From the NCBI GenBank assembly GCA_023664725.1, contig JAMPFA010000001.1, positions 599,191 to 662,412 of the forward strand: DNA of 63,222 nt, written 5' to 3'. The notes beneath the pieces are model-generated. The model was given only the letters and a program-made list of their open reading frames with translations. It was not told the origin of the DNA and did no database searches. The first letter of the stretch is position 1. Each line of letters begins with the position of its first letter. This stretch comes from Roseburia sp. Its GTDB lineage: Bacteria > Bacillota > Clostridia > Lachnospirales > Lachnospiraceae. The translations under genes were made by a program, and so were the position numbers. Of this stretch, positions 10,879 through 50,844 are shown piece after piece.

Positions 10879-11225
10879 ATAAGAAGAATGGACTAGACGG
10901 GAATCGAACCCGTGTCCAAAAACCAATCCCCTGTCCTTCTACGAGTGTAGTCACTCCTTTGACATTTCCTCCGCCGCCCGGGGAGAGACACCCTGGCGGT
11001 TTTAGTAGCTTCATAATACGCCCACCGGCTCAAAGCTTTGCCGATGTCGTTTCCTACATAGTCGAAGCCTGGATCCTAATGTGTAGGTGCACTAGGTCAG
11101 ACTGCTGCCATTAGGCAGCGTAAGCTAAATTATCGTTAGCGTTTAATTTTAATTTTGGCATTTAACGCATCCCATACGACTCGCTTCTCCAGCTTCAAGA
11201 TCCCTGTCGAAACCTTTACTAGCCC
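10879..11225 (-). ncRNA. ssrA: tmRNA (SsrA), ~347 nt, CCA not encoded.
   Basis: 5' GGGCTAGTAAAGGTTTCGACAGGGAT... and 3' ...GGTTCGATTCCCGTCTAGTCCA form a tRNA-Ala-like acceptor stem with a G3:U70 pair and a T-arm GGTTCGATTCC. Internal tag reading frame ...GCT AAC GAT AAT TTA GCT TAC GCT GCC TAA (predicted tag ANDNLAYAA). smpB is immediately upstream. Confidence 0.9.
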
Positions 11226-11325: not shown

Positions 11326-11790
11326 TTACGACATTTTTACTTTGAAATCCCGCTCCGCTTCCCGCTTTGCGTCCTTCTTTGCAATATCCTTGCGCTTATC
11401 GTAAAGCTTCTTTCCCTTTGCCAGGGCAATCTGCACTTTCACCAGGCTTCCCTTAAAATACACCTCCACAGGAACCAGGGTATATCCCTTCTCCGCAATC
11501 TTCTGTTGAAGTTTTAAAATCTCTCTCTTATGCATCAGAAGCTTTTTAGGACGAAGAGGATCTCTGTTAAAAATATTCCCCTTTTCATAGGGAGATATGT
11601 GCATACCATAAATATACACCTCCCCTTTTTCAATCCGGACAAATGCCTCTTTGATACTGCACTTACCCATGCGCAGGGACTTTACTTCCGTCCCGTGAAG
11701 GCTGACCCCTGTCTCATACAATTCCTCCAGAAAATAATCATGCCTTGCCTTCTTATTGTTGGCAATCAGCTTCCTTGAGTCTTTTGCCAT
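11326..11790 (-). CDS. smpB: SsrA-binding protein SmpB.
   Basis: 154 aa with the canonical SmpB sequence ([11 protein letters not shown]...[10 protein letters not shown]...[11 protein letters not shown]...). Confidence 0.95.
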
Positions 11791-18796: not shown

Positions 18797-18809
18797 AAAA
18801 TACCTCCTC

Positions 18810-20384
18810 TCACTTTTTCCAGACCGCAAATAAAACAAATATTACCGTAAGCATGTTCATATAGAAAAGAACTGCCTCTGCCATCGATGGCTCCTCCCCC
18901 GTCTGCACCGTAACTTTCCTGTTTTGTGCCACGATTGGGAACAGCAAAACCAGCGGCAGAAAATAGCGTCCCTGCACACATGCCACTGCCTCTTCCACAA
19001 GATCAGTCTCTGCCAGGAACATAACCAGGATCGGGGCTGATACTCCAAAAGCAATCATCTCTCCCACCAATATTTTCTGCCATCTGGAAAATACGATCCT
19101 GCTCTCTTCCCCCAGCACATATAACACCAGGAGAAACAAAAAAACCAGGAGAAAATGTCTGGGAATTTTCACGTCAAGCCATCCCAAACTTTTTCCCATG
19201 AATGTATCCAATGTCTCGTCCCCCCGCTTCAAACTCATACTATATATCAGAAAAAACAGCGAGTCCAGCGGATGGTGCAGAAGATACGACAGCGAATATC
19301 CCTGCTTCGCCGTTAAATTCGTGGTATCTGATGCAATAAAAGCAACCTTCCCAAGTTTCAGATAAACAGAGATCAAAATCGGCAAAACAAGAACACCTGC
19401 ATATGCAGCCTGGTATTTCCATCTTACTGACACTTTTTTTACAGGTATAAATAAAATGAGTAACAAAAATGGTATATACACCAGCTTAATCGGTGCAAAA
19501 CAGCATCCCATAATGACCATCAAAAAAAATTCTTTCCATGTTACCTTTTCCCTGTCGTAAGCACAGTGCATAACAAATGACACAAACAGAAGAATAAATG
19601 CCAGATTGACACTGTCATAGGAAATGGAGGAAACCAGTTCCACAGTCATGGGAATCTGGCACAAAACCATAATCACCCGCTTTCCATAGGGCATCCATTT
19701 TAGACTCCGGGCTGCAGCAATGCAAAAAAACAAGAAGTTAAAAATTCTTGCCAGGATCATCAGCCATCTCCCATTCAGATTTAAAACTCTCGCAAGCGTC
19801 ATTCCTGCTGCCGGGATAAAATACGTGGTAAAGGGCACTGTCTTTTCCGGGAAATAGGCTTCATAGACCACCATCTCCTCCGAATTCGCCTTTTTAAACA
19901 ATTCTCTGAAATACTCAGCGTATGTCTCTTTTTCATAGCTGAATACCTGGGTATCCCTGTCCTCCCTGCGAACATAAATGTGTCCATCACTATCTTCCAT
20001 ATTTTTCCCCATCATGATATTGGATATCCTGTATGCACTGGCAAAATGTACTCCCTCATCCGGCGCCGAAAATGCCGGAAGAACGATATTAAACATCATA
20101 CCTGTCAAAAAAAGCATTACTGCAAAACGCCGCTCTAATGTGTGTTCTATTTTTCCCTCCCTGCACAGCCACCAGTAACAAATTCCAATCATCGACAGAA
20201 TCATCAGAAGCAGATATATTTTAAAGAACATGTCTCTATAAGGCAATGCATATTCTTTTAATCCGGATTCCCAGTATAAAAAATACAGGATTCCCACCAC
20301 TGCTTCCATACATAAAAAAACTGTTAGCCTATTTTTCACCTGCCGATCCATACGCCATTCCTCCATAATCTTAACAGCTGTCAT
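18810..20384 (-). CDS. DUF2142-like polytopic membrane protein (GT-C-fold candidate glycosyltransferase).
   Basis: 524 aa; first extracytoplasmic loop carries FSAPDEGVHF (D-E motif typical of GT-C enzymes); start overlaps the upstream stop (ATGA). Confidence 0.55.
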   Translation of the reverse strand: MTAVKIMEEWRMDRQVKNRLTVFLCMEAVVGILYFLYWESGLKEYALPYRDMFFKIYLLLMILSMIGICYWWLCREGKIEHTLERRFAVMLFLTGMMFNIVLPAFSAPDEGVHFASAYRISNIMMGKNMEDSDGHIYVRREDRDTQVFSYEKETYAEYFRELFKKANSEEMVVYEAYFPEKTVPFTTYFIPAAGMTLARVLNLNGRWLMILARIFNFLFFCIAAARSLKWMPYGKRVIMVLCQIPMTVELVSSISYDSVNLAFILLFVSFVMHCAYDREKVTWKEFFLMVIMGCCFAPIKLVYIPFLLLILFIPVKKVSVRWKYQAAYAGVLVLPILISVYLKLGKVAFIASDTTNLTAKQGYSLSYLLHHPLDSLFFLIYSMSLKRGDETLDTFMGKSLGWLDVKIPRHFLLVFLFLLVLYVLGEESRIVFSRWQKILVGEMIAFGVSAPILVMFLAETDLVEEAVACVQGRYFLPLVLLFPIVAQNRKVTVQTGEEPSMAEAVLFYMNMLTVIFVLFAVWKK

Positions 20385-22168
20385 TTATAAACTGCGATAA
20401 ACCCTGCACTGTTTTCAAATACCTTGGGAAAACGTTCCCACAGTTCTTCATATTTTTTGTATTCTTTACTGTCTTTTATCACACACAGATACTCCGGCTG
20501 TGTCTCTTTTGCATACTCCTTTATCTCTTTTGTTTTCATATACAGATACGGTACATACCACTGGTTTGTGATCGCTTCCTCAAAATAACGCTCACGCACA
20601 TTCATCACCGGACAGATCCTTTTTTTCTCCGATTGATAAATCGCATATGCCTTCTCATACAACTCTTTTTTGAAAGGCTCCTTATCCAGATGTTCTGCCC
20701 GGTCCACTTCCCTGGTCATTGCGCAGAAATTCTCCATATAAATCCTGCAGTAATCATATCCCTCCTGGGGATTTTCTGCCAGGTATTCATTGGCAGCAGA
20801 AATTTTTGGCGGAATTTCTGCCAATACCACCACAACAGGCAAGATCCAGGCAGCAAAACATGCCAGCATGATCTCCTGTCCTTTTTTTTCCGCAATCTCC
20901 TCTAACCCTTCATAGGCAAACAGAAAAACAAACGCCCACATAAGATAATTATTTTTATAATAGTAGTACGCAGATACAGCCTCTGTTAAAGAAGCACAAA
21001 ACATGATTAGCATATATGCACCTTCCAACAGAAAAAACACCAGAAGGCAATAAGATTTCCTTTTCTTTATACGGTGAAATATGCCCAAAAAAAACAGGAA
21101 TAGAAACGGCACAAAATCTGTAAAATTATTTCTATAAATATACCCCTCCCGGCTAATAGCATTGGTCACTGTCACTCCGTCCTTAAATATGCCCCTGTAA
21201 GTAAACCAGAGCCCAATAAAACATGGATATGCAAACACAAAAAACTCCCTTGCTGCCCACACATAAAAAACTTTCCTTTCACTCCATGCCTTCCATGCCA
21301 ATATGACAAATACTGCCAAAAACACAGGCGGAACATACAGTGCATAGCAGCAGATCAATCCGCCGCATCCTGCCAAAAGATACCATTGTGCCGTATTTTC
21401 CGAGGCATTTCCCTCCAGATACTCCTCTAAAATTTTCCACAAGAATATCACCAGAGTAACTCCCATACCCTGATATAAAAATCCGGTAATCATATGGTTG
21501 AGCGGATACCCCAAAAGATATAGCAGCAGAAGTCCCCCGCCTGCAATCTTTCCACACTTTCCCCAGTTGTCTTTTCTAATAAAAGCATAGAGGGAAATTC
21601 CTGACAGATAAAGCCAGATCATGTCTATATAGGATTCCGCCCGATACAAATCCGTTTCTTTATAGATCATAGAAAAGAACGATAGCAAAAAAGAATTATT
21701 CAGGGAAGAAAAATACATCGCATCTACTTTTCCTGTCAAAAACACCATAAATGCCTCGTGATAATGAGTCGCCGCATCTGTAGAAATATAGACAAAACGC
21801 ACCGGAAACCCATACCGGATAACCCCCAGAGCCGCTACAAAAACAGCCAATCCTAAAATTGCAAAAACATCCAGCTTTTCCCATACATACTCCTGTCTGC
21901 TCCCGGTGCGGTATTCATAAAAAAGCAGGCTTATCCCAAGTACCGCATCTAATATTCCAAAAGATGTCACAGAACAGGGAATTTGCAATGCCATCACAAC
22001 GGGCGCTGCCAGTACATGGAAACAAAGTACCATAAGCACTGAGATCACGCCCCATGCAATACCCAAAAGAGTCTTTTCCGATTTTCTCTGTCGATAAATG
22101 CCGGCCACCGCCAGAAAAAATCCTGCTGCAAATAATATGTTTCCGGCTAAGATCGCAATGCCCATCAC
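20381..22168 (-). CDS. Large polytopic membrane protein, paralog of 16946..18796 (GT-C-like).
   Basis: 595 aa, many TM helices, AYYYYKNNYLMW motif shared with the 616-aa paralog; ATGA coupling on both sides. Confidence 0.55.
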   Translation of the reverse strand: MMGIAILAGNILFAAGFFLAVAGIYRQRKSEKTLLGIAWGVISVLMVLCFHVLAAPVVMALQIPCSVTSFGILDAVLGISLLFYEYRTGSRQEYVWEKLDVFAILGLAVFVAALGVIRYGFPVRFVYISTDAATHYHEAFMVFLTGKVDAMYFSSLNNSFLLSFFSMIYKETDLYRAESYIDMIWLYLSGISLYAFIRKDNWGKCGKIAGGGLLLLYLLGYPLNHMITGFLYQGMGVTLVIFLWKILEEYLEGNASENTAQWYLLAGCGGLICCYALYVPPVFLAVFVILAWKAWSERKVFYVWAAREFFVFAYPCFIGLWFTYRGIFKDGVTVTNAISREGYIYRNNFTDFVPFLFLFFLGIFHRIKKRKSYCLLVFFLLEGAYMLIMFCASLTEAVSAYYYYKNNYLMWAFVFLFAYEGLEEIAEKKGQEIMLACFAAWILPVVVVLAEIPPKISAANEYLAENPQEGYDYCRIYMENFCAMTREVDRAEHLDKEPFKKELYEKAYAIYQSEKKRICPVMNVRERYFEEAITNQWYVPYLYMKTKEIKEYAKETQPEYLCVIKDSKEYKKYEELWERFPKVFENSAGFIAVYK

Positions 22169-24396
22169 TGCCTCCCTCTAATTCTCTTTTTTTCATAAAC
22201 CCATGTGAAAATCCACAGGATCAGACTAAAAAGTGAAATCATATCAAATATATGCCACAGGGGAACCCCCGTGTATCCCACCTTCACATCCCCTGTATAA
22301 TCTGCCGGAAACCATATCCGAAGCCGGTTATTTTCCCCCAAACCGCAACGCAGGACATTCCCGCTTTTATCCCATGCCTGATATCCTTTAAAATACAGCA
22401 GGGTTGTATCGATATAAGAACCTGATCTCGCAGAAACCTTCATTCCCACACTCCCCATATCCTGTTGGTATTTAAACAGCGTTATGCCAGATTCTGAAAT
22501 CTTCGGTTCCATATTCTTCAGCGCTTCCACATCTGTAGACTGAAGCAGGTAATCACTTGCCATGTAAGTTTCCGGAATGGCATCGCCATGATAGATATAC
22601 GCAGTTTTGGTATAATCACATATGCCTATAAACAGAATAAACGAAATAACAAACCCGGAAACGATCAGTGTTTTCTTCGGTATTCCTTTCCCGACTTCCA
22701 CTGCCGCAAATCCTGTTCCCAATGCCAGAAACGCACTTGCCGGCCCTAAAAAACGCCAGGGAAATTGTAGCAGTCCCGCTACATCATGAAAGATATCACT
22801 TTGCATAAATAAATCCCAGGGAAATATTTTTGTAGCGCATACTCCTATCCCACAGGCAGCGCACCACAACGCCAGGATCATTTTTTTTCTGTGGGGATCC
22901 TGACAAATATTTTTATCATACAGCACACAAAAGCAAAGAACTGCCCCCAGTGTAAGGATCATCCCCAATGTCCTGGGATCTTCCCTGTTCACTGCTACAA
23001 ATAATTCTCCAAACTCAATAGCATAATTCTGTGCATCCACGATCATACTGGCTATGTTGGTGTACTCCCTGCCTTCATACATCTCAAAAAAAGGGACAAG
23101 AAACCAGGCACACAGCCCAAAAGATGCCACAGCTGCCTTGCACAAAGCCAAAAAAGCATCTTTCTTAAAAACTTTTCTTGTAAAAATTAATGAAAACCAT
23201 ACCAGCAGTACTACAGCAAATAATGTTGAAAGAATATGGCTTAACACCAATCCTGTCATAGCAATGCTAAGAGGTCTCCACTCTGCTCTCTCCTGAAAAA
23301 CCGCCACATAAAAACCACAGATAACCAGCGGGAAAAAGCACATGGCAACGCATTCACCCAGATCGGCCCGATAATAAAAATTGCAGGCAAAATATTCGCA
23401 AAACACATACACAATAGCGCAAAGCACCCCTACAGTATCGTCTCCCCCCATCTTCTTTGCAGCATAAAACATGATAAGAGCTGCCAGAAGATGAATGCAA
23501 AAACCAAAAATCTGCAGACTCACCGCTAAAGAAACGCCACACAAACACAACACAGCAGGAAAATACAAAAAGAGATCGGGATAATACAGGCCGCAGCCAT
23601 ATCCCGCTCCATAGTATGCGGATGGATATACCCTGACTGGAAACTGTCCTGCTAAAAGCCCATCCCGTATACCTACAATCCGCATTAAATGAAACTGCAG
23701 ATCATCTCCACCATACAAAACATTGGCGAAATACGGATAAGATGAGGCAATTGCGGCGAGAAGCAGCTGAGCAAACACTGTAAATTTCTTTCTCCCTCTT
23801 CTCTTTAAAACCACCATTCCCAGAATGTAAAAAAACAGCACAAAAAATGCTATGGCGAGAATGTCACACGGGCAATACTCCTGCCCATCCACTGCCATAT
23901 CAAAAATTTCCAGCTTTCCCTTTCCCCCGTAATACATATTGATATCTATACCTTCTGTATATTCATTCAGACAAATGGAAATCTCCTCGGCGCTCCAATC
24001 TTCCCCTTCTGACTTCGGAAGAACATAACGTTCTTTACATTTAATGGCATCTTTTATCCTCGTCTGAAAAGATATGTAATTGCCCTCACTGTCGGCAGAA
24101 TATCTGATCGTAATCCGGTATTCCCCCTTATCCAATGAAACAGCAGGGCAAGTAACAAACAACCCTGCCCCAAAAGAAAGTTCTTCGTCCACATACTGTG
24201 CCCTTTTCAAAAAATACTTCTTTGACTTTCCCTCTTCACATAAAAGATCACTTCTGCCATACTCCCTATGGTAGTAAGCTGTTGGCAGTTTTATAACTGT
24301 CACAAGGCAAATTAATATAAATCCAAAAATGAAAAAACGGAACCACCCGGCATGTCCATATTCATTCCACTGATCTTGCAGTATATTTTTTCCCAT
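22165..24396 (-). CDS. YfhO-like large membrane protein with an N-terminal signal anchor and ~150-aa extracytoplasmic domain preceding the polytopic core, plus a C-terminal TM.
   Basis: 743 aa; YGGDDLQFHLMRIVGIRDG motif at the start of the membrane core; C-terminal soluble region then a final TM; first gene of the 4-gene membrane array. Confidence 0.5.
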   Translation of the reverse strand: MGKNILQDQWNEYGHAGWFRFFIFGFILICLVTVIKLPTAYYHREYGRSDLLCEEGKSKKYFLKRAQYVDEELSFGAGLFVTCPAVSLDKGEYRITIRYSADSEGNYISFQTRIKDAIKCKERYVLPKSEGEDWSAEEISICLNEYTEGIDINMYYGGKGKLEIFDMAVDGQEYCPCDILAIAFFVLFFYILGMVVLKRRGRKKFTVFAQLLLAAIASSYPYFANVLYGGDDLQFHLMRIVGIRDGLLAGQFPVRVYPSAYYGAGYGCGLYYPDLFLYFPAVLCLCGVSLAVSLQIFGFCIHLLAALIMFYAAKKMGGDDTVGVLCAIVYVFCEYFACNFYYRADLGECVAMCFFPLVICGFYVAVFQERAEWRPLSIAMTGLVLSHILSTLFAVVLLVWFSLIFTRKVFKKDAFLALCKAAVASFGLCAWFLVPFFEMYEGREYTNIASMIVDAQNYAIEFGELFVAVNREDPRTLGMILTLGAVLCFCVLYDKNICQDPHRKKMILALWCAACGIGVCATKIFPWDLFMQSDIFHDVAGLLQFPWRFLGPASAFLALGTGFAAVEVGKGIPKKTLIVSGFVISFILFIGICDYTKTAYIYHGDAIPETYMASDYLLQSTDVEALKNMEPKISESGITLFKYQQDMGSVGMKVSARSGSYIDTTLLYFKGYQAWDKSGNVLRCGLGENNRLRIWFPADYTGDVKVGYTGVPLWHIFDMISLFSLILWIFTWVYEKKRIRGRQ

Positions 24397-36596: not shown

Positions 36597-37142
36597 TCAG
36601 GAAAAAAAAGGTTTATCGTCATATTGACCAAAAGCCGTGGAAAGCCCCACAGTCTGCAGATTTTCCACAATTCCCTCCATCATTTTATCTTTTTTGTGGT
36701 ATATGCGCATGTTCTTCCAGGGAATGTCCGTGATATATTCCCGCTGCCGTTCCTTAAGACAGTCAAGGATTTTTTCATACAGTTCCCTTTCCCTTCCCAT
36801 TACCAGGCCAAAATCACAGGGGAGATAGATGTCCATCTCCCCCGGATCTTTCACCTCTGTCACTCTCCGGAAACTGGTTCTCCCGTATTTGTCATACTCT
36901 TTCACATAGCTCACCTGCTCCTGCCTGTGGGCTCTTTCCGGTTTTGTAAGGCAGATCACACCAGTATCCACCAAATGGTCCCACACTACATTCTGCACCC
37001 TCTCATAGGGGGCGGGATAATCAAGACTTTCCATAATCTGGCTGACGGAATAGCCCAGATTCCAGAGGTGGCGGATGGCCCCGCCGTTTGCCATATCCTG
37101 GGAAAAATTTTTAAGGGCTCTCTTAAAAAATTCCTCCGACAT
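36597..37142 (-). CDS. Hypothetical cytoplasmic protein (181 aa) upstream of the gap operon.
   Basis: No recognisable motifs; sits where central glycolytic regulators are often encoded in Firmicutes, but shows no HTH signature. Confidence 0.45.
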   Translation of the reverse strand: MSEEFFKRALKNFSQDMANGGAIRHLWNLGYSVSQIMESLDYPAPYERVQNVVWDHLVDTGVICLTKPERAHRQEQVSYVKEYDKYGRTSFRRVTEVKDPGEMDIYLPCDFGLVMGRERELYEKILDCLKERQREYITDIPWKNMRIYHKKDKMMEGIVENLQTVGLSTAFGQYDDKPFFS

Positions 37143-37144
37143 GA

Positions 37145-37993
37145 CTATTCCACCAGCTTATCTTTGAAGAAGCAGATAATACACTGCCAGATCTCTCTCT
37201 GGAAAAACTGAAGGTCCGCATGATCCGCATCCTTGATCTCCAGCAGTGTCACGTCGCAGCCTGCCTCCTCCAATTTGTCATACAGCGCTTCCCCCTGGGA
37301 AAATGGCACAGTGTGGTCATTGTTTCCATGGATAATCAAAAATGGCGGTGCGTCTTTTGTGACATAGTTCACCGGGCAGATTTTCTTTGCCTCCTCCTTA
37401 TTGGTCATAACATTCATTCCAAGGAGCATAGATTCCGGCGATACTGCGGCAAAGACTTCCGAAGGGTATTCTATACTGGCAACATCGGCTGGGGGATACC
37501 ATGTACATGCCGCCTGGACAGTGCTGGCATGATCCAGATAAGTTCCCACATCATAGGAAGGCGCATTTGCCAGTGCCGCCATGGCGGCAAGATACCCTCC
37601 GGCAGATTCCCCCATCACTCCCATGCGTCTGCTGTCGATATTGTAGCGCTCTGCATGTGCTTTTAAATAGCGGATTCCCGCTTTCACATCCTGTAAGGGC
37701 ATGGGAAAGCGCACTTCGTTGGTAGTGCGGTACTCTACGCTTGCCACCACAAAACCGCTTCTGGCAAGTTCCGCCAGATAGGCAAGGTGGGCGGACCTGT
37801 CCATGGTCATCCAGGCCCCTCCGCAGATCCAGACGATACAGGGATACTTCTTTGTGGAATCTTCAGGATAGATAATATCCATTTTCAGGTCTTTTCTGGT
37901 GTGTCCAAACCAGGTATCCACCTGGGCAAAACTGACACCTGTAATAACGGAATACTGTGGCTCCTCTACTTTTACTTCAATTTTCCTTCTCAC
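37145..37993 (-). CDS. Alpha/beta hydrolase (HSL-like carboxylesterase).
   Basis: HGGAW-type box (WICGGAW) and nucleophile elbow GESAGG; 282 aa. Confidence 0.8.
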   Translation of the reverse strand: MRRKIEVKVEEPQYSVITGVSFAQVDTWFGHTRKDLKMDIIYPEDSTKKYPCIVWICGGAWMTMDRSAHLAYLAELARSGFVVASVEYRTTNEVRFPMPLQDVKAGIRYLKAHAERYNIDSRRMGVMGESAGGYLAAMAALANAPSYDVGTYLDHASTVQAACTWYPPADVASIEYPSEVFAAVSPESMLLGMNVMTNKEEAKKICPVNYVTKDAPPFLIIHGNNDHTVPFSQGEALYDKLEEAGCDVTLLEIKDADHADLQFFQREIWQCIICFFKDKLVE

Positions 37994-38044
37994 TATTTTT
38001 ACCTTCTTTCTTTTGAATACTTTTATTATACTCCCCTTTTTCCC

Positions 38045-39712
38045 CTATGTCAGCACCTGATTTAAAGCATAGACTGCCGCCCCGGCAGCTCCCACGATCT
38101 CAGGTTCCTCACAGATATACAGCTTTGCGCCGATTTTTTCTTCCAGGGCACGGACCACCCCGGGGTTTTTGGCAACACCCCCGGTCATCATGTAATCCCC
38201 CTCCATGCCCACACGCTTCATCAGGGAGTAAGCCTTCCCTGCGATGGCATTGCAGATTCCGTTGGCAATGTCCGCTTTTTCCTTATTGTTGGCAATCAGG
38301 GAAATCACTTCGGACTCCGCAAACACAGAACACATGCTGGTAATCTCAATATCCTCCGTGGATTTCAATGCAATGGGTCCAAGCTCGTCAATGTCAATTT
38401 CCAGAGAGCGGGCGATCATCTCCAGAAAACGCCCTGTCCCAGCGGCGCACTTGTCATTCATCACAAAATCCACCACTTCCCCCTCTTCATTCAGGCGGAT
38501 TCCCTTGCTGTCCTGACCGCCGATATCTAAAATTGTGCGTATCTTTGGATTAAAATAGTGCGCTCCTTTTCCGTGACAGCTGATCTCCGTCACATTCTCA
38601 TCTGCAAAATCGATGCTGACCCTGCCGTAGCCTGTGGACACGATCCTCTCGATATCCTCCTTTTTAAGACCAGCCTTGTCCAACACTTCCTGTAAAATCC
38701 GCTCTGCGCTCTCCCCGGACTTTGCCCCGGTGCGCACCACATCATATGCCACGATCTCCCTCTTGTCATTCATGATCACCGCATTGGTGGAAGTAGAGCC
38801 GCTGTCAATTCCCATGACATACATTTTTTCCTGTCCCCTTTCCCTCTTTTTCCCTTTTCCCTCCAGAGTGCCCAGAGATTCCAAAAAGGCCTCAATTCTG
38901 GTAAGTATCTGACCATAACTTTGTTTCGTATAATCTGTCTCCAGCAAAAGCTTGGGCTTTTCTATTTTATCCTTCAGCCAGGCATATTCATAGGCATAAT
39001 TGTCGCAAAACTGCACAGTGTGGTAAATGATCCCATCTACGCTGTCCGCATATTTTTGCACCAGACCGTCCCGGTCCGCAGCCTCCTCCATACGCATACA
39101 GGGAAACTGGCTCAAAAGCCCTCTGGTGTAGCCTGTCAAAATATCCTCTTTCTCCAGTAAAAGTTTTCTGGAAAGTCCGGTGCAGGTTAAGTCAAAGGCT
39201 GCGTTTGCCCCTTTCTCCTCCAGGATCTTGCGGATATTCTGGTTTGCCCTTGCCCCCACGATCCCGATGTTTTTGCAACCCTTTTTCAGGGAGATGGGTT
39301 TCGTATTTTCTGCTTTATCTATAATCTCTTTTAGCTTATCTTCCTCAAAACTTTTTCCGGAAAACTCCTCATAAGCTTCTATCATCCTTTGGATTCTCTT
39401 TTCATACAGGACAATGCCAGGATCTTTTGTAATCCTTGGAATATCCAGTATATAGATAAATTTATCCGGCAATTCCTCCTTCAGCACATCATACAGTCGG
39501 CGGATGCTGTCACAGCAGGTGGTAAGCAGCACTCCCTCATACTCTTTTGCCAGAACGGTTTCCAGCACTCCCTTGGCAAAACTGCAGATATTGGGATGCA
39601 TTTTCATATCCGCCTGGTTAAAATTTGTCACCTCCGGCTCAATCCGCTCTACTTCGGTTTCCATAGCCTGAAAAATTTCCACAGGCGCATATTTACATAT
39701 ATAACCTATCAT
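38045..39712 (-). CDS. Fusion protein: 2-hydroxyacyl-CoA dehydratase beta-like subunit (HgdB-like, N-terminal ~290 aa) fused to a BadF/BadG/BcrA/BcrD-type ATPase activase (HgdC-like, C-terminal ~260 aa).
   Basis: N-terminal YICKYAPVE...TTCCDS...HTVQFCD motifs. The C-terminal half begins MYVMGIDSGSTSTNAVIM (activase actin-like fold) with cluster-ligating Cys residues. Confidence 0.75.
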   Translation of the reverse strand: MIGYICKYAPVEIFQAMETEVERIEPEVTNFNQADMKMHPNICSFAKGVLETVLAKEYEGVLLTTCCDSIRRLYDVLKEELPDKFIYILDIPRITKDPGIVLYEKRIQRMIEAYEEFSGKSFEEDKLKEIIDKAENTKPISLKKGCKNIGIVGARANQNIRKILEEKGANAAFDLTCTGLSRKLLLEKEDILTGYTRGLLSQFPCMRMEEAADRDGLVQKYADSVDGIIYHTVQFCDNYAYEYAWLKDKIEKPKLLLETDYTKQSYGQILTRIEAFLESLGTLEGKGKKRERGQEKMYVMGIDSGSTSTNAVIMNDKREIVAYDVVRTGAKSGESAERILQEVLDKAGLKKEDIERIVSTGYGRVSIDFADENVTEISCHGKGAHYFNPKIRTILDIGGQDSKGIRLNEEGEVVDFVMNDKCAAGTGRFLEMIARSLEIDIDELGPIALKSTEDIEITSMCSVFAESEVISLIANNKEKADIANGICNAIAGKAYSLMKRVGMEGDYMMTGGVAKNPGVVRALEEKIGAKLYICEEPEIVGAAGAAVYALNQVLT

Positions 39713-40980
39713 GTCTCCTCTGACCTCCCCAAAAGTTCTAAAAATGCCTCCAGCCTGGTTTTCAACTGTCCGTCATGGCTGTTTCTCTTGTCAATGCCGT
39801 CCCCATCCAAATTTAACATGGGAATATCAAGTTCCTGCATTTTCTCTTTTAACAGCACACTGCCCCCGGCTGCCTGCTTGCACCCCCAATGGCAGAAATG
39901 GATGACCGCATCCGGTGAAACCTCCCCGCAAAGTTCTGCGATTGCCTGGGCCTTATGGCGGTAGGTACCGTTAAACACATTGTGAATGATCTTCTCTGCC
40001 AGGGCGAGAAAGGGATCTGAGACATCCAGATCCTCTGTGTAATCCAGCACGATATCGCTGGCGATCACCTGATACTCTTCATTTCCGTTAAAGTATTCCC
40101 GCAGGCTCTCCTGATAAAAAGGCAGAAGATGCACCCAGAGGATCCGCTTCCCCGTAAATTTGGGATAAGTCTTAATATCCTCTATCATAAATTTTACCAC
40201 ATCCCGAAATTCTTTTGTCCCCATAAGAAGATGGGTACCCATCATCAGATAGAGCTGACAGATCAGCTCACCGGGATAAAAATATTCTTTTTGGAGACGG
40301 AAAAATTCTCTTAAATCCCGTCTTGTCTCATTTTCAATCAGAAGAATTTCTTTCAGTTTCTCCTCCTGAAACCGTATTCCAAATCTCTCCTCCAGATCTT
40401 CTGCCAATTTCTGAAGCTGGTCTCTTAAATACAAGACAGAATCCCTGTCATCCCCATAGGGCACATCCAAAAAAGAAAAGGGAACCCCCAGCTTTTTTTC
40501 CAGATAACGGAAAGTGTTGAGATTGCCGTCACAGGATAAGGATGTGGTGACGGAATATTTTGGCGCATGAATGGTGCCGCTCTCCACTGCCCCCACAAAA
40601 GTTTTGTGGTAGGAACACAGAGTTGGGGCAATGCCGCTGTTCTGGGCACAATCGATAAAATAATCCTCCAGGTGATACCCGGTAAAAAAGCAGGATAGAC
40701 ACTCTACGGAAAGGGTTTTCAGTCCAAAACATTCCATGATCTCACAGGGTGCAAAAATATTTCCCCATACATATCTGTCCTCTTTTCCAAGGGAATCTGC
40801 TACCAGGGACATCATAAGCCCTTCCAGCTTCTGGTATCCTTTACTTAAGTTTTTCTTGGGCAGAAATCTGGTTCTAAGCCTGTTTGCCTTAAATCCCAGG
40901 ATCATTTTCTCCCAGCCCTTGTCTGACTCCTCCACGACTTCTTTTTTCACATGGTCAATATATTTGTCTACAACACTCAT
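39709..40980 (-). CDS. 2-hydroxyacyl-CoA dehydratase alpha-like subunit (HgdA/BcrC/BadD family; double-cubane-cluster protein family).
   Basis: 423 aa; family-typical N-terminus (...FLPKKNLSKGY...GNIFAPCEIMECFG...) and conserved cysteines; 4-nt overlap with the downstream fusion gene. Confidence 0.7.
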   Translation of the reverse strand: MSVVDKYIDHVKKEVVEESDKGWEKMILGFKANRLRTRFLPKKNLSKGYQKLEGLMMSLVADSLGKEDRYVWGNIFAPCEIMECFGLKTLSVECLSCFFTGYHLEDYFIDCAQNSGIAPTLCSYHKTFVGAVESGTIHAPKYSVTTSLSCDGNLNTFRYLEKKLGVPFSFLDVPYGDDRDSVLYLRDQLQKLAEDLEERFGIRFQEEKLKEILLIENETRRDLREFFRLQKEYFYPGELICQLYLMMGTHLLMGTKEFRDVVKFMIEDIKTYPKFTGKRILWVHLLPFYQESLREYFNGNEEYQVIASDIVLDYTEDLDVSDPFLALAEKIIHNVFNGTYRHKAQAIAELCGEVSPDAVIHFCHWGCKQAAGGSVLLKEKMQELDIPMLNLDGDGIDKRNSHDGQLKTRLEAFLELLGRSEET

Positions 40981-41001
40981 TGCTTGTCCCTCTCTTTTCT
41001 G

Positions 41002-42387
41002 CTAAAAATGCCGGATAACCTCAAACCGCTCCAATGCCACATCCTCTTCCCTCCGTATACCCGCTTTCTGTTTTGCGATAGCAATCTGCTCCTCCACAGT
41101 ATCTACCCCCTCCAGGTTCGGCAAAAGCAGTCCTCTTTTGCTTCCCTTTGTCACAATCACTCCATACCGCTTTACATCCAGCTCCTTTGGAGAATCAATG
41201 CGCTGTATCTCCCCAAGCACATCCACGCTGATCGTGAGATACTCCAATTCCTCCGGCTCCACCGGGTCAAATCTGGGGTCATTGGATGAGGCGCTTATGG
41301 CATTTTCTATGATCTCCTGTGCCACAGAGCCGTAAACTCCCTGGATAGTTCCGATACATCCTCTAAGGCTTCCCTGCTTTTTGATGGAGACAAACACTCC
41401 TGCCCTCTGGCCATACATCTCCTCCGAAAGCCCCTCCGGCACATCTATTCTTCTGCCTGTACACACAAACTCTTCTATGGTATGTCTCGCAAGACGGACA
41501 AAATCATCCTCCCGCTCCCTAATGGCAGCCATTTTTTTCCGCTCTCTCTCCTGATACTGTTCTTTAAAATTTCTGGATAGATCCTCCTCTGATACATCGT
41601 AGGCACAGATTCCATATCCCACCCCGAAAGGCCCCTCATAGGAGAGTCGCTCCGGTTTCACTGCCGTTTTGTCCAATGCTCCTGACAGGAGCACAAAAGA
41701 CCGGTGTCCGCACTCTCCTGCCCTGCTGCAAAACTCCTCCGAAAAATCAAAGAGTTCCAGAAAATTTCCTTTTTCCATAACTTCCATAATATTTTTGTCA
41801 TATACAGGGCCTTCCTCCTGATAACCGTAAGGACCGTCCGGTTTCAGACAGTGGGACAGATCCCCGCTGGCAACCAGCACGACGTTCCTGCCCAAATTCT
41901 CTGCCACCTCTTTGATACACTGTCCAAGCTCATAATGGCTGACAAGAGACAAACCAGAGAGGCCGATGCGCACCAGGCGGTAATCCCTCCAATATTTGTT
42001 GACAAAATACAGGGGAACCATTGTCCCGTGGTCCAGTTTTTTCTCTTTCTCCCCAAAGGTTCCGGCAGGTAAACCTTTCTCTCCTGCAAGTCCACTCAAT
42101 TTTATCACAAATTCCCTGTCATAGGAAACCTTTATTTTTTCCTGTCCTGCACGAAACTGTCCAAAATCTCCCTGGGCGCTCTCCCCCGGCGAGATATGAA
42201 AATAATCTGCGTACATAGTCTGATGGGGCGAGATCAATACGATAGTCTCCGGTCTGTGGACAGAAATTCTCTGTCCTGTCTCCTCATAGGCATCAATTGT
42301 TTTTTGTATCTGCTTTTCCTCCCCTTTTCCCACCGATGGAATGATCAACGGCGGGTGGGGAACCATATATGCGGCTGTAATTCCCAT
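41002..42387 (-). CDS. Fusion of a LigB/Memo-like (class III extradiol dioxygenase fold) domain with a C-terminal AMMECR1 domain.
   Basis: N-terminal MVPHPPLIIP... LigB-like fold (~270 aa). The C-terminal ~180 aa carries the AMMECR1 signature (...SLRGCIG...LLLPNL...). 21 nt upstream of the dehydratase gene. Confidence 0.7.
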   Translation of the reverse strand: MGITAAYMVPHPPLIIPSVGKGEEKQIQKTIDAYEETGQRISVHRPETIVLISPHQTMYADYFHISPGESAQGDFGQFRAGQEKIKVSYDREFVIKLSGLAGEKGLPAGTFGEKEKKLDHGTMVPLYFVNKYWRDYRLVRIGLSGLSLVSHYELGQCIKEVAENLGRNVVLVASGDLSHCLKPDGPYGYQEEGPVYDKNIMEVMEKGNFLELFDFSEEFCSRAGECGHRSFVLLSGALDKTAVKPERLSYEGPFGVGYGICAYDVSEEDLSRNFKEQYQERERKKMAAIREREDDFVRLARHTIEEFVCTGRRIDVPEGLSEEMYGQRAGVFVSIKKQGSLRGCIGTIQGVYGSVAQEIIENAISASSNDPRFDPVEPEELEYLTISVDVLGEIQRIDSPKELDVKRYGVIVTKGSKRGLLLPNLEGVDTVEEQIAIAKQKAGIRREEDVALERFEVIRHF

Positions 42388-42514
42388 AAGAACCTCCTAC
42401 TCGCTGTGCGGGGGTGTGTGCTGCGAAAGCAGCTATGCTCCTTACGCACCCCTGTGCATACAAAACGGGCAAGTTCCTCACGCTAAGGAACCTGCCCTGC
42501 TTCTCTCTCACGTT

Positions 42515-43273
42515 TTAAATACTGTAATTAAAATGACTTCCTGTGCCGGTGGTCTGTTCATCTTTCACCTTATCCCAATTTACATTCTGAATCTTCTCTA
42601 ACAGCTCTTCCACAGAATTTGCCTTTACCATAGTGCGCTTTCCGTAAGGCTTCTCCATCCATTCTTTCTCGGCTTTCTTGGCCTGCTCTCTCGCAGTCTT
42701 GGCATCCTCTTCTTTCTTGGCTTCTTTTGTCTTCTCGATATGCTCTTTCTGCTTATCGCTCATTTTCTGAAGCTCTGCAAAATAGGAAACTGTACCGTCC
42801 TTGCCGATGGATACGCCAAGATTTACCACTTCATCTTTTTTATCTCCAAGCTGATCTTTGATCTCGTTCAGCTTGCCCGTCGACTCCTCTATAATGGAAA
42901 GATTCTTCTCTTTGTAATCGGAATCTGTAGCCATTTTTTCCAATTCCTCCGGGTCGATCAACACACTGTACTCTTTTGTCCCTCTAGAAAGATATTCCTG
43001 GGCTTCCTCGTCGGAATCGAAGCTTGCCACCATGAAGTCCATGTTGCCATATCTTCTTCGAAGCTCCGCCAACAATGCCTTGGCGTTGTCACTGAGTTTT
43101 GTGTTGTTTTTCACGGCACTGGCACTGTCTTTTTTATCGGCCTTTGCAGTTGTATTCTGTTTGTTCTTCTGATTTTTCAGCGTATTGTCGTAATTGTTTT
43201 GATACGCTCCATAAGTTCCCACTTTGTTCATTGGCATAACCTCCCTGTTATACAGCCAGCCAAAAGCCGGCAC
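42515..43273 (-). CDS. Lys/Glu-rich hypothetical protein (252 aa).
   Basis: Low-complexity charged protein; no recognised domain. Confidence 0.5.
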   Translation of the reverse strand: MPAFGWLYNREVMPMNKVGTYGAYQNNYDNTLKNQKNKQNTTAKADKKDSASAVKNNTKLSDNAKALLAELRRRYGNMDFMVASFDSDEEAQEYLSRGTKEYSVLIDPEELEKMATDSDYKEKNLSIIEESTGKLNEIKDQLGDKKDEVVNLGVSIGKDGTVSYFAELQKMSDKQKEHIEKTKEAKKEEDAKTAREQAKKAEKEWMEKPYGKRTMVKANSVEELLEKIQNVNWDKVKDEQTTGTGSHFNYSI

Positions 43274-46836: not shown

Positions 46837-49131
46837 CTATTTCTCCTTATCGTCTTTATTTCTAATCTCTTCTTCTGCCTTCAACACATTCTTACACATA
46901 AGTTCCAGTTGCTCTACATAATCTAAATCCTCTATGTCCTGAGTTTCCCATAACTCATCAGCTCTCGTTGCAATCTGGTCGGTAATGTCCCCCTCCTCGT
47001 TATACCATACTTGCACTAAATCATCCGGAGTAATCTTAACCCTGGTTTCCGACATAAATATTAATGAACTCAACTCGTCTGCATCCTTGCCCCTTTTTAC
47101 ATAGTAAATGTCATTGCATAGTCTCATTGAAACCTCAAGATACAAAGGACAAGCATGGTATCCTGTCAATAGCTTACCATTTAATCTGTGAGGGATATAG
47201 AACGAATCCTCTTCCGGTTTTTCTAACATAACAACAAAATTATTCGCATCTATGAACCCCTGATAATTTGCAACTGTTCTCGGATATTTTACAAAATAGT
47301 ATCTCCAGTCTTTATGCTTATCGAGTTTAGGAAGATTATTGTTTATTATGATTTCAAGGCTTTTTTCTATATCTGATGAGTCTGCATCATAATACTGCTC
47401 AAGAAACTCTGTTATTATCCTGGGATAATCACCCCGATCCGTTGTTGAAAGGATGTTATACCAATCCCTTACTCTATTTCCATAATAATATCTTCGTCCA
47501 AAATAACTATTTCCAAGGTCAATACCATAATCATTAACTGACAATATAGCTCGGAAAAGTTTTTCAAAAAACTGTTCACTAAACAACTCAGCAATATTGT
47601 CGGCCAAATCTTCAATATGCCGTTTTTTTACGAAAGGCATGACATTATGGATGAATGTTCTGAATTCGTCCATGTCTTCCAGTTTGTGTATATACTCTTC
47701 CATCTCAGGATGTTCAATAATATAATCCGCCTTATCTTTTTCGTACTTAAGGCTTTCACTATTTACCCTATCATCCTTCATTCCAGAAACAAATTCATAA
47801 ATGTCGTCTGCCTCCATGATTTCATCAAGTCCAAATGAGATATACGGGATTCCATGTCTGCAAAAACGAAAGTCCGGAGTATAACTCTCATACTTCCTCT
47901 GTCGCACCTTAATAACAAAATTACGGATGATTCTTACATAATTCTTTATATTATCATCTGTCACGCCCTTCTTTTTGAAATGAATAAGTCTCTTCATGAA
48001 CAGAAACAGGATCACCTTATTAAATACCTTCAAACCATTCTTGTTAATGGTTGCATCGATAAGATTATGTTTATCATCAAACACACGAACCTTGCCCTCG
48101 CAATACCGGTCAGAGAATACAGCATCAAAACACTCCTCTATTTCTTCCTTACTCTTCCACAAATCAAAAAGCTCATATAACTCCTCGACTTTCTCCTTGG
48201 TATCATAGAATGAAATCAATCCACGGATATCTGTTACCTTGAATGGAGAGTTTCCGTCTTTTTGCCCTGAATACTCAAGGTATATCATCTCTGTAAAATA
48301 AAGGAATAAATACATAAACTGCTCATCGATTGTATTATCAATCGGAGACCTATAGTCCCACAGCAAATCAGTCCACTTGGTATCTACAGATGCCTCAAAA
48401 TGCCCATATGGTAATCCATTCTTTTTCATATGCTGTATAAACTTAGCCTTGAAATTCTCGAAGTCAGATAGATTTTTTCCACGAGCGTTCATCTTGATAT
48501 ACAAATCATCTGTCAGAGCATAGTTCTCCATCGGCAGATAATTAAAAGTTATTATTGGACTCTCACCCATATCCCTTGTCAAGAGTGGATATAATTCTTT
48601 ATCCTCATCAAAGAACTTCTCGTGTATCGCATCAAGCATTACAAGCATATGGCGGATGGTTGGATCCTTATCCCATATGTCAAAGTATATATTTTGGTCT
48701 TTTATATGCTCTGATGGCGATATCCCGTCCTCCGGGACATAATCCATACTTATCAGCTTTTCACAGAATTCCCGTGAACTGATTCTTGTTTCATATGAAA
48801 AATTTTGAAGTACTTCTCTTGCTTCATCAATTGTTCCTTCTTTACAAGCAATATACCAATGTAGAAGATAAAGAGTTGTAAGTCTCTGCTGACCATCCAA
48901 AGGATATAGTACTCCGTTCTTAAAAGTTCCATAAACGAAATCAAAGTCCATGTTCTTTTCATTGATTAAAGCGTTATATATCGAATCAAGCAGTTCCATC
49001 CTTATAGCTGTAACATTCTCCGACATTCTTCCCTGTGCATAGTCTCTCTGCATTATAGGAATTTTTATTGTATATTGATTTATCAACATCCAAAAAGTAT
49101 ATCTGCTGTTATCTGACTGTAGATCTGGCAT
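46837..49131 (-). CDS. DUF262 (ParB/GmrS-like NTP-binding) domain protein with a long C-terminal region lacking an obvious nuclease motif.
   Basis: 764 aa; N-terminal IPIMQRDYAQG...PLDGQQRLTT...MNARGKNLSDFE (DUF262 hallmarks); low-GC coding sequence. Confidence 0.75.
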   Translation of the reverse strand: MPDLQSDNSRYTFWMLINQYTIKIPIMQRDYAQGRMSENVTAIRMELLDSIYNALINEKNMDFDFVYGTFKNGVLYPLDGQQRLTTLYLLHWYIACKEGTIDEAREVLQNFSYETRISSREFCEKLISMDYVPEDGISPSEHIKDQNIYFDIWDKDPTIRHMLVMLDAIHEKFFDEDKELYPLLTRDMGESPIITFNYLPMENYALTDDLYIKMNARGKNLSDFENFKAKFIQHMKKNGLPYGHFEASVDTKWTDLLWDYRSPIDNTIDEQFMYLFLYFTEMIYLEYSGQKDGNSPFKVTDIRGLISFYDTKEKVEELYELFDLWKSKEEIEECFDAVFSDRYCEGKVRVFDDKHNLIDATINKNGLKVFNKVILFLFMKRLIHFKKKGVTDDNIKNYVRIIRNFVIKVRQRKYESYTPDFRFCRHGIPYISFGLDEIMEADDIYEFVSGMKDDRVNSESLKYEKDKADYIIEHPEMEEYIHKLEDMDEFRTFIHNVMPFVKKRHIEDLADNIAELFSEQFFEKLFRAILSVNDYGIDLGNSYFGRRYYYGNRVRDWYNILSTTDRGDYPRIITEFLEQYYDADSSDIEKSLEIIINNNLPKLDKHKDWRYYFVKYPRTVANYQGFIDANNFVVMLEKPEEDSFYIPHRLNGKLLTGYHACPLYLEVSMRLCNDIYYVKRGKDADELSSLIFMSETRVKITPDDLVQVWYNEEGDITDQIATRADELWETQDIEDLDYVEQLELMCKNVLKAEEEIRNKDDKEK

Positions 49132-49134
49132 AGC

Positions 49135-50844
49135 TTATCCCTCCTGTAAGAACTCTTTTAGAGTATTTTTGATGGCTTGTAAGTAATCTGCTCTGTCCTT
49201 CTGACTCCAATAATGAATCTGGCTTGCATCTTCACTATAATATTTCAGAAAAACATTTCTTGTACATATAGGAATAAACTCTCCGTTCCTATCCTTTTTG
49301 ACTATGATTCCTCTCTTAACATCAAAGAAACTGTTACTGAGGGCACTATTTGTATTTCTGTCAAGTAATGCCAAGTTACTTATATTATTCAAATCCGTAC
49401 CATAATCCGATTCTATTTCTTTGCAGATTTCATCAAAAAGCTGAGTGAAACTGTCCTGTGTTATATGTTTCCTGTCGAAATTCTCAAGCATCTCAACAAT
49501 CTTCTCATATTTATTGCTGCCTTCTTGGTTCACGATAGTTTTGAAACTTGTAAGATGTTCATCTATCCATGCAAGCATAGCATCGGAAGAATTCAGAATA
49601 CCTTCTGCATTTTGAGCGTGTATATGTTCTAAAGACCACTCATTCTTATGGTATTCATCAAAACGGAATCTGGAATAAGCATTACTTTTATTCATAATTG
49701 TTATAACATTGAACAAAAGAAGCACCGTGTTGATATCATCTGCATTATCATTATAATCCAAAATACTAATATCCCCTATCCGCTCCATCTTTCTCTTGAT
49801 AATGTCCTTTATACTTTCAAGAAACTCAGACTTTGAATAGTTGCAAGCCTTATATTCGTATATCAAGTCTTCAATTGAACTAAGTTTCCTTGATGTGATA
49901 AATCCGATCAGATGGTAATAAACCTGATTGTTATACCACTCCATGACAGTCTGAAAATAATCCTTGATTTTCTTCCACACATCATCAACCAACATGGTTT
50001 TTAACATCTCATTAAACTTATGAAAAGTCGCAAATTCTCCATTGGTCTCATAGTCACTATAATTTATGGAATCAAAAATATATTCAATACGAACCTCAGG
50101 CTGTTTTGAATACTGCCGATTGATAAAATACCACACCTTATCATCCTGCAGTGTGTTTTCTATTGTATCCCACTCATTAGCAATCTCCATTTGACGTAAA
50201 TATGTAACTTTGCTATCCCCGGAATAATTTGATTCCTTGAGAAGAAGCGCCTTGATAAGCTCAGCATTTGTCAGCGGAATCTTTCCAATGTTGAGTCTGG
50301 TAAAAATACTCTCTGCATCTACATCATCAACCTCATACCAGATTACCTTGCAGAATCTTAACAAATGAGTTGTCATCTCCGTCTCGAGGGAATATTCTTC
50401 ATATTCTTCTACCATTGTGTCAAACCAGTTTTCAACAGTAGCAAAAGCTGTCTTCATAAAATAGAAATCAATATTCTTTTCCACAATCTCCCCTTTTGCC
50501 CTATCACAAATCTCATCAAGGAACTTTTCGCTGCCTTCTCTTGACGCATAATCAATGCTATAGGTTCTTCGCTGATTAAGGTATTTCAGAATAATCAGTA
50601 TCGTGGTAAGTCTCTGCTGACCATCTATGACATCATATAAGCCTCCCCTTTTTTTCACAACAATAGGTTGGAGGCAGTAAAACTCTCCTGCACTTGTATT
50701 TGCGGAATTTTTAAACTCATATAAATCATTCAGCAAGTCTTCTACTTGCTGAACATCCCATCTGTATCCCCTTTGGTATGTGGGAATAAAGAACTTCTTA
50801 TTAATCAATTTATTTACTTCCCATAGTTCAATCGTATTTGACAC
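49135..50844 (-). CDS. GmrSD-like protein: N-terminal DUF262 plus C-terminal DUF1524 HNH-like (His-Me finger) nuclease domain.
   Basis: 569 aa; FFIPTYQRGYRW...VIDGQQRLTT...RLNIGKIPLTNAE (DUF262) and EHIHAQN...ALLDRNTNSALSN (DUF1524 H-N-N); 4 nt upstream of the next DUF262 gene. Confidence 0.8.
   Translation of the reverse strand: MSNTIELWEVNKLINKKFFIPTYQRGYRWDVQQVEDLLNDLYEFKNSANTSAGEFYCLQPIVVKKRGGLYDVIDGQQRLTTILIILKYLNQRRTYSIDYASREGSEKFLDEICDRAKGEIVEKNIDFYFMKTAFATVENWFDTMVEEYEEYSLETEMTTHLLRFCKVIWYEVDDVDAESIFTRLNIGKIPLTNAELIKALLLKESNYSGDSKVTYLRQMEIANEWDTIENTLQDDKVWYFINRQYSKQPEVRIEYIFDSINYSDYETNGEFATFHKFNEMLKTMLVDDVWKKIKDYFQTVMEWYNNQVYYHLIGFITSRKLSSIEDLIYEYKACNYSKSEFLESIKDIIKRKMERIGDISILDYNDNADDINTVLLLFNVITIMNKSNAYSRFRFDEYHKNEWSLEHIHAQNAEGILNSSDAMLAWIDEHLTSFKTIVNQEGSNKYEKIVEMLENFDRKHITQDSFTQLFDEICKEIESDYGTDLNNISNLALLDRNTNSALSNSFFDVKRGIIVKKDRNGEFIPICTRNVFLKYYSEDASQIHYWSQKDRADYLQAIKNTLKEFLQEG

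Follow-up and report, generated by a model that had tools for sequence, protein, structure and literature searches.

The question raised by this locus is whether an AMMECR1/Memo-like protein, normally found with a radical SAM enzyme, can work instead with an ATP-driven iron-sulfur (Fe-S) enzyme of the dehydratase type. The locus lies in a 63,222-nt stretch of DNA from Roseburia sp. (the window), in which open reading frame (ORF) calling gave three minus-strand genes spanning positions 38045-42387: g1, fusing a LigB/Memo-like domain to an AMMECR1 domain; g2, a subunit with the dehydratase domain HGD-D; and g3, in which a second HGD-D domain is fused to an activase. An earlier note on this DNA had described the three genes as co-directional and tightly spaced, and this was borne out by sequence inspection: the spacer between g1 and g2 is 21 nt long and contains a ribosome-binding site, and g2 and g3 overlap by 4 nt in an ATGA start/stop. 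The note had further suggested that the AMMECR1/Memo-like protein associates with the dehydratase/double-cubane enzyme instead of the radical SAM protein. The comparative evidence points elsewhere. Most probably, two independent and already recognised modules stand side by side in a slot of variable content in a Roseburia-like lineage, co-transcribed by virtue of gene order and not of shared function. The first module would be g1, an A/B protein of the AmmeMemoRadiSam system. Its radical SAM gene would have been lost here in the ancestor of the sublineage, and could be present or absent in the rest of the genome; the second module would be g2-g3, an autonomous two-gene ATP-driven Fe-S enzyme.

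Neighbourhoods of g1 and of the g2-g3 pair

The neighbourhood of g1 was followed in a genome-collection scan comprising 80 loci with 63-75% identity, mostly annotated as Lachnospiraceae, with flanks of up to 10 kb on each side (individual loci are given below as L-numbers). Of the 80 loci, about 73 have a radical SAM gene (275 aa) within 10 kb of g1. It is mostly the next gene after g1, and a few loci have it as a fragment, inverted or displaced; the tblastn query was L082:7865-8692, which passes TIGR04337 at 246.8 against 220 bits. Homologs of g2 or g3 were found by tblastn within 10 kb in none of the 80 loci, both at E ≤ 1e-10 and at E ≤ 1e-5. Loci L007, L046, L053, L057, L070, L077 and L080 have no radical SAM gene within 10 kb of g1, and L032 (7917-8267), L043 (11693-12211) and L068 (11537-11902) have only fragments of it (116-172 aa) next to an intact g1; none of these loci without an intact adjacent radical SAM gene has g2-g3. 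The radical SAM neighbour may have been repeatedly lost or relocated, or frameshift errors in metagenome-assembled genomes (MAGs) may be responsible.

The reciprocal survey covered 80 loci on metagenome contigs with relatives of g3 at 31-82% identity. In every one of them having upstream DNA, g2 stands directly upstream of g3, and neither g1 nor the radical SAM gene occurs in any of the 80. From the two surveys taken together it follows that g2-g3 is an obligate pair forming an autonomous module, and that the normal partner of g1 is the radical SAM protein; there is no conserved linkage of g1 to g2-g3.

A conserved neighbour that might name the substrate of g2-g3 was sought by clustering the flanking ORFs of about 85 loci. 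The flanks differ from lineage to lineage, with no neighbour conserved across them, and gave no clue; representatives of the few recurrent clusters are, judged from sequences only, functionally unrelated (transposase-like, chloride channel, fucosidase-like, HEAT repeats and permease). The gene order in Faecalicatena fissicatena is RpiR-g2-g3-uracil permease, a context that was considered as a substrate clue and rejected since it is not general; in L172, the order is rpoC-VanZ-g2-g3-SpoIIID.

The order g1-g2-g3 is limited to loci closely related to the window, whose g3 is at least 85% identical. It is found as DUF6033-g1-g2-g3-esterase in the window, in L166/167 and in L169-171, in the last of which the g1 stop overlaps the g2 start, and as FtsX-g1-g2-g3-esterase in L083. 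Locus L082 has the order DUF6033-g1-radical SAM-g2-g3-transglutaminase-like-esterase, and its four genes from g1 to g3 are co-directional with gaps of 67, 40 and -7 nt. Two further members are shorter, with g1-transglutaminase-like-esterase in L081 and g1-esterase in L001. By pairwise identities over five genes, L082 is the outgroup for every gene compared, L081 groups with the window (closest by g1, 85%), and L001 groups with L166/L169.

The most parsimonious history starts from an ancestor with the L082 order. A single loss, at the base of the ingroup, would have removed the radical SAM gene from its position, and g2-g3 would have been lost at least two times within the clade, in L081 and in L001. 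Because the outgroup L082 has g1, the radical SAM gene and g2-g3 together, g2-g3 came in alongside the radical SAM gene and not as its substitute, and the comparative data from the g1, g3 and clade loci give the adjacency of g1 and g2-g3 a single evolutionary origin. The association proposed in the earlier note is thus contradicted by both surveys and by L082, L081 and L001, and the neighbourhood check that it had called for found the adjacency of AMMECR1 with dehydratase/activase genes not to be kept beyond one narrow clade.

The slot between g1 (or g3) and the esterase gene also holds, in L081 and L082, a transglutaminase-like gene encoding a protein with a transglutaminase core and fn3 domains (L081:2724-5660, 978 aa; L082:11697-13841, 714 aa), which has a weak match to the MAG6410-family of transglutaminase-related lipoproteins. 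This slot is plainly fluid, and the esterase gene is its conserved downstream boundary, belonging to neither module. The possibility that g2-g3 is a mobile insertion was considered and rejected, there being no flanking repeats and no compositional shift. A Tn916-type excisionase and a tyrosine integrase are encoded in L083 (2232-3724), 3.5 kb upstream of g1 and just before the ABC/FtsX genes, not adjoining g2-g3.

Identity of the two modules

The domain assignments proposed for the three genes held in hidden Markov model scans (LigB, AMMECR1, HGD-D and BcrAD_BadFG), with Memo borderline. In g1, the Pfam models matched are LigB (1.4e-45, 156 bits, residues 6-260) and AMMECR1 (1.6e-44, 151.8 bits, residues 297-458), while Memo is barely over its cutoff (28.5 against 27 bits). 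Against NCBIfam, g1 scores 131.6 bits with TIGR04335 (AmmeMemoSam_A, cutoff 99), which qualifies it as protein A, and 32.3 bits with TIGR04336 (AmmeMemoSam_B, cutoff 26), which marginally qualifies it as protein B. It is 100% identical to the Roseburia sp. MAG protein P0001, annotated 'AmmeMemoRadiSam system protein A', and public records name proteins of this type 'AmmeMemoRadiSam system protein A' or 'A/B'. Going by these scores, g1 is AmmeMemoRadiSam proteins B and A in one polypeptide, the N-terminal domain having a predicted class III extradiol dioxygenase fold. The A/B fusion is the same in all of the at least 80 Lachnospiraceae orthologs examined. Two features set g1 apart from the system as usually defined: the TIGR04337 radical SAM member is missing beside it and across the 63-kb window, and its N-terminal domain is far closer to LigB than to Memo in Pfam. 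The Memo-AMMECR1-radical SAM context was reportedly described by Burroughs et al. in 2019 (J Biol Chem 294:10211); a literature search turned up no functional work on prokaryotic AMMECR1 or AmmeMemoRadiSam proteins.

The absence of a radical SAM gene, already remarked on before, was substantiated in the window by tblastn with the AmmeMemoRadiSam radical SAM protein (no match at E ≤ 1e-5) and by a motif scan, in which no window ORF of at least 90 aa contained CxxxCxxC or CxxCxxC. The g1 of the window matches 173 of the 175 columns conserved at 97% or more in 82 orthologs, and that of L001 matches all 175; by this measure, g1 is equally intact in the clade loci compared, also where it has neither partner. 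An Rfam scan upstream of g1 for a riboswitch or leader gave none, the sole match in the window being the transfer-messenger RNA (tmRNA) elsewhere. The divergence of g1 is much faster than that of its neighbours: between the window and L083, g1 is 71% identical, g2 and g3 are 94% identical and the esterase is 89% identical, which suggests either that recombination replaced the g1 allele or that constraint on g1 is relaxed.

For g2, the Pfam match is HGD-D (2.5e-64), and a PDB sequence search gave HadB as the best relative of solved structure (2.9e-10), with HadC also among the best matches. The only invariant cysteines among 47 orthologs are C122, C150 and C367, and these align with three conserved cysteines of HadB. 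C122 also aligns to Cys95 of BzdO, and C150 falls within one residue of BzdO Cys128; the cluster ligands of BzdO are Cys95/128/380 (PMC11971306). From these alignments, g2 is predicted to be the substrate-binding subunit carrying an open-site [4Fe-4S] cluster.

The g3 protein, 100% identical to the NCBI MAG protein P0121, matches HGD-D in its N-terminal part (7.4e-44) and BcrAD_BadFG at residues 301-549 (2.4e-68). Its N-terminal domain has seven cysteines invariant in 53 orthologs (C6, C43, C66, C67, C177, C205 and C236, spaced C-X36-C-X22-CC-X109-C-X27-C-X30-C). All except C66 fall, in a phmmer alignment to 8s02_B, on Cys36, 73, 100, 263, 293 and 327 of BzdN, which are the six ligands of its [8Fe-9S] double-cubane cluster (PMC11971306). 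The N-terminal half of this alignment was accepted because three invariant cysteines coincide there with three ligand positions. The best PDB sequence match of the domain is that of its C-terminal 65 residues to DCCP (2e-12). Foldseek on the AlphaFold2 model placed the domain nearer to the beta/N-type subunits than to the alpha type, with TM-scores of 0.62 for HadC, 0.59 for BzdN, 0.55 for MbdN, 0.51-0.53 for DCCP and 0.49 for HadB. The domain is accordingly given here as a predicted double-cubane subunit of electron entry and storage. Three points call for caution in this respect: the cofactors of g2-g3 were assigned by alignment, the g3-BzdN alignment is weak in its N-terminal part and not significant there alone, and the model of g3 is of moderate confidence only (mean pLDDT 71.6).

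The C-terminal domain of g3 passes TIGR00241 (CoA_E_activ) at 286.1 against a cutoff of 125.4 bits, and its PDB sequence matches are MbdQ (2.6e-73), HadI (7e-73) and HgdC (1.6e-63), to which it also shows Foldseek TMt values of 0.82-0.85. It contains the nucleotide motif GIDSGST and two cysteines, C422 and C461, invariant in the 53 orthologs and 39 residues apart. These presumably correspond to Cys127/Cys166 of HgdC, and they are predicted to bind a dimer-bridging [4Fe-4S] cluster. In characterised systems, the activator dimer is bridged by such a cluster, and the activase donates an electron to the beta subunit (PMC11574389).

On its domain content, g2-g3 is a putative self-contained ATP-driven Fe-S enzyme of the benzoyl-CoA-reductase / 2-hydroxyacyl-CoA-dehydratase / double-cubane superfamily, in which the ATPase is fused to the predicted electron-storage subunit. 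Two g3 chains would dimerise via their archerase domains around one [4Fe-4S] cluster, giving an inferred stoichiometry of (g2.g3)2. ATP hydrolysis would then push a low-potential electron into the predicted [8Fe-9S] double cubane of the g3 N-terminal domain, which would hand it to the three-cysteine open-site [4Fe-4S] cluster of g2. There, a substrate would be either reduced or put through a ketyl-type radical reaction. The cofactor content, the direction of electron flow and the chemistry in this scheme are likewise inferred.

Among characterised systems, the class I benzoyl-CoA reductases Bzd/Mbd (PDB 8s02, 9gai) resemble the pair in having a three-cysteine open-site subunit (g2 C122/C150/C367 against BzdO Cys95/128/380), in the six cysteines of the g3 N-terminal domain at the BzdN [8Fe-9S] ligand positions, and in an ASKHA ATPase close to MbdQ (2.6e-73). 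The combination of an O-type subunit with three cysteines and an N-type subunit with six is thus present at the level of aligned invariant cysteines. However, the catalytic subunits are remote, with 30.3 against 453.8 bits for TIGR03190 and 23.5 against 448.6 for TIGR03191, and TIGR03192 is not reached either (229.2 bits, cutoff 380.2). Furthermore, g3 has one fused ATPase domain, whereas Bzd has two distinct ATPase subunits (BzdPQ); the g3 N-terminal domain is about 90 residues shorter than BzdN; no aromatic-degradation genes lie near g2-g3; and the host is a gut fermenter.

A further comparison is with the 'class III' putative double-cubane proteins, which a review describes as having six cysteines, being fused to the reductase, measuring about 550 aa and being abundant in Firmicutes (Jeoung, Martins & Dobbek 2020, PMC7317905). 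Compared by this published description only, g3 agrees in its 555 aa, in six ligand cysteines without the seventh, in the fused activase and in its Lachnospiraceae host. From the DCCP/DCCP-R of Carboxydothermus hydrogenoformans (PDB 6eno, 7yyl) the pair differs in its NF040772 scores (102.7 bits for g3 and 73.6 for g2, against a cutoff of 350) and in the cysteine spacing of g3, which departs from the seven-cysteine motif CX19CX18-19CX29CX166-170CX32-34CX32C. Moreover, DCCP forms a homodimer; g3, by contrast, is always accompanied by the distinct three-cysteine partner g2. Since the fused protein always has this separate partner, its architecture is like the heterodimeric BzdNO core and not like the DCCP homodimer. 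In the excerpted text of the review, a separate partner for the class III proteins goes unmentioned (PMC7317905), and the constant g2 partner of the fused g3-type proteins would appear to be a new point.

The dehydratases HadBC/HadI and HgdAB/HgdC (PDB 3o3m, 4eht, 1hux) share with g2-g3 the alpha/beta pair of HGD-D subunits with an archerase, HadB being the top sequence match of g2 and HadC the top fold match of the g3 N-terminal domain. It could accordingly be asked whether g2-g3 is simply an (R)-2-hydroxyacyl-CoA dehydratase of the conventional kind together with an activator, with a role in amino-acid (Stickland-type) fermentation and with its place beside g1 being irrelevant. HadB and HadC are the best solved-structure matches of g2, HadI and HgdC are among the best of the activase domain, and relatives are publicly annotated as '2-hydroxyacyl-CoA dehydratase'. 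Yet the scores are far under the equivalog cutoffs (63.5 against 750 bits for HadB, 43.6 against 700 for HadC); the invariant cysteines of the beta-type g3 domain number six or seven and follow the BzdN pattern, six of them at ligand positions, and not three as in HadC; and the activase is fused. Pathway genes are not at hand: the earlier note's statement that neither a CoA-transferase nor an acyl-CoA dehydrogenase is nearby stood up, and among the approximately 40 largest window ORFs scanned there is no 2-hydroxyacid dehydrogenase or ETF either. The recurrent neighbours sampled from the roughly 85 loci are, as judged from their sequences only, unrelated to acyl-CoA metabolism. A conventional dehydratase is therefore considered unlikely. 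Since all equivalog models (HadB, HadC, BzdN, BzdO, double_cubane) are widely missed, g2-g3 is placed in none of the characterised families and is regarded as a distinct uncharacterised branch.

Transcription and the proposed shared function

Neither the g1/g2 nor the g2/g3 junction has a convincing terminator; there are only weak stems of 5-6 bp, inside the ORFs. With the 21-nt gap and the 4-nt overlap, the three genes very likely form one transcript. As far as these signals go, the g1-g2-g3 operon seems to be physically real in this lineage, and separate transcription is not indicated. The esterase gene may have a promoter of its own, to judge from a promoter-like site (11/12) located 32 nt upstream of its start. 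Upstream of g1, segments L001:9860-10008, L166:5180-5308, L169:935-1090 and L081:1225-1320 were compared with the window. A good TTTACA-17-TATAAT promoter lies between the DUF6033 terminator and g1 in L001, L166 and L169; its counterpart in the window (42388-42470, minus strand) is degenerate (TATGCA...CATAGC), and in L081 the segment is deleted. In view of this degenerate promoter, g1-g2-g3 may be weakly expressed in the window or may rely on read-through.

Several observations weigh against the interpretation of the locus as two independent modules. The g1-g2-g3 order has been kept over at least four species-level lineages while g1 fell to about 70% identity, and the spacing is operon-like, with the 21-nt gap in the window and the stop/start overlap in L169. 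Persistence in the clade together with such spacing makes some selective advantage of co-expression possible. In addition, none of the 120 best matches to the L082 radical SAM protein in a 5.8-billion-protein collection lies on the 996-kb contig of the window; an ortholog of about 70% identity could rank lower or sit on another contig. With no such gene in the 63 kb or, among these top matches, on the contig, the genome could truly be without it.

Largely the same observations would recommend the view that the AMMECR1/Memo-like protein works with g2-g3, the latter taking over from the lost radical SAM enzyme as the source of radical or low-potential chemistry. To the spacing, the lack of an internal terminator and the persistence over at least four lineages are added the absence of the radical SAM gene beside g1 in all ingroup members (for L166 and L169-171 by called-gene tables only) and the purifying selection still acting on g1. 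This view is nevertheless quite improbable, given that the adjacency arose once only and recurs in none of the 80 other g1 loci and none of the 80 metagenome loci with g3, that the radical SAM gene and g2-g3 coexist in the outgroup, that g1 is intact in L081 and L001, which have neither partner beside it, that the slot has also accepted an unrelated transglutaminase-like gene, and that some 12 other Lachnospiraceae g1 loci have neither an intact adjacent radical SAM gene nor g2-g3. Highly improbable, too, is the more specific proposition that in this sublineage the AMMECR1/Memo-like protein lost the radical SAM gene from the genome and now depends on the co-transcribed BzdNO-like [4Fe-4S]/[8Fe-9S] enzyme; if true, such dependence would give a first clue to how the two orphan systems work chemically. 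The least probable explanation is that g2-g3 was recruited in the clade ancestor, in an operon of the L082 type, as an electron source or downstream enzyme for AmmeMemoRadiSam and remained tied to g1 after relocation of the radical SAM gene: L082 does have all four genes in one co-directional cluster and radical SAM enzymes require a low-potential reductant, but g2-g3 has a full catalytic architecture (substrate-type subunit, storage subunit and ATPase), more than an electron donor needs, stands alone in all other lineages examined, and was lost twice in the clade while g1 was retained.

Had the association been general, it would have offered a handle on AMMECR1/Memo, which has human disease homologs, and on an uncharacterised branch of ATP-dependent Fe-S radical enzymes. 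As the juxtaposition is lineage-specific, the finding opens no route into the chemistry of either. What two independent modules sharing a slot do offer is more modest. Fused double-cubane-type/activase proteins, which are frequent in gut Firmicutes, are always accompanied by a separate three-cysteine HadB/BzdO-like partner and look like BzdNO-type heteromers, and the fused AmmeMemo A/B protein is repeatedly kept intact where the radical SAM gene next to it has been lost or has decayed.

Features and neighbours in the window

The features of the locus are collected in the table below. Further neighbours in the window include ABC/FtsX transporter genes, GAPDH-PGK-TPI, RtcB, a flotillin-like gene, DhaKLM, a gene for a GGDEF protein and a GmrSD-like pair.

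Table. Features of the g1-g2-g3 locus and its borders (positions within the window)
Feature	Position	Strand	Basis or remark
DUF6033 gene	42515..43273	-	Pfam; kept upstream neighbour of g1 in the clade, used as synteny anchor
Terminator-like hairpin	42467..42497	-	14-bp stem, T-rich tail; ends the DUF6033 gene; 5' boundary of the g1 transcription unit
g1, LigB/Memo-like + AMMECR1 fusion, 461 aa	41002..42387	-	Pfam, NCBIfam
g1 N-terminal LigB/Memo-like domain, residues 6-260	41608..42372	-	Pfam, TIGR04336
g1 C-terminal AMMECR1 domain, residues 297-458	41014..41499	-	Pfam, TIGR04335
g2, HGD-D subunit of alpha/O type (HadB/BzdO-like), 423 aa	39709..40980	-	Pfam, PDB sequence search
g3, HGD-D + activase fusion, 555 aa	38045..39712	-	Pfam
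g3 N-terminal domain, residues 1-285, short HGD-D of beta/N type	38858..39712	-	Cysteine invariance, BzdN alignment, Foldseek
g3 C-terminal domain, residues 297-552, ASKHA-type activase (archerase)	38057..38824	-	TIGR00241, PDB matches, Foldseek
Promoter-like site CTGACA-17-TATAAT	38025..38053	-	3' end of g3; consensus match only, 11/12
BD-FAE/alpha-beta hydrolase esterase gene	37145..37993	-	Pfam; synteny in L001, L081, L082, L083, L166, L169

Directly after the esterase gene, an ORF of 181 aa (36597-37142, minus strand) has no Pfam or NCBIfam match; L001 and L083 have it at the same position, and in L166 and L170 the esterase gene is followed by ORFs of comparable length. The GmrSD-like pair at 46837-50844 (minus strand) consists of two tandem GmrSD_N/DUF262-domain proteins of 764 and 569 aa. 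The GC content of the window is lowest here, at 0.35-0.39 compared with some 0.45 in the rest, and this is probably a restriction/defence island gained by horizontal transfer. At 16946-24396 (minus strand) there are four co-directional overlapping ORFs of 630, 524, 595 and 743 aa, among which the sole Pfam match is that of the 524-aa ORF to DUF2142, a predicted membrane protein; the four may form an envelope or glycosylation cluster that is as yet uncharacterised. Finally, the tmRNA gene at 10886-11225 (minus strand; Rfam RF00023, 140 bits) is adjoined by an RNase R gene with RNB, CSD2 and S1 domains (11806-13926, minus strand), and an ORF of 154 aa (11326-11790) lies between the two.

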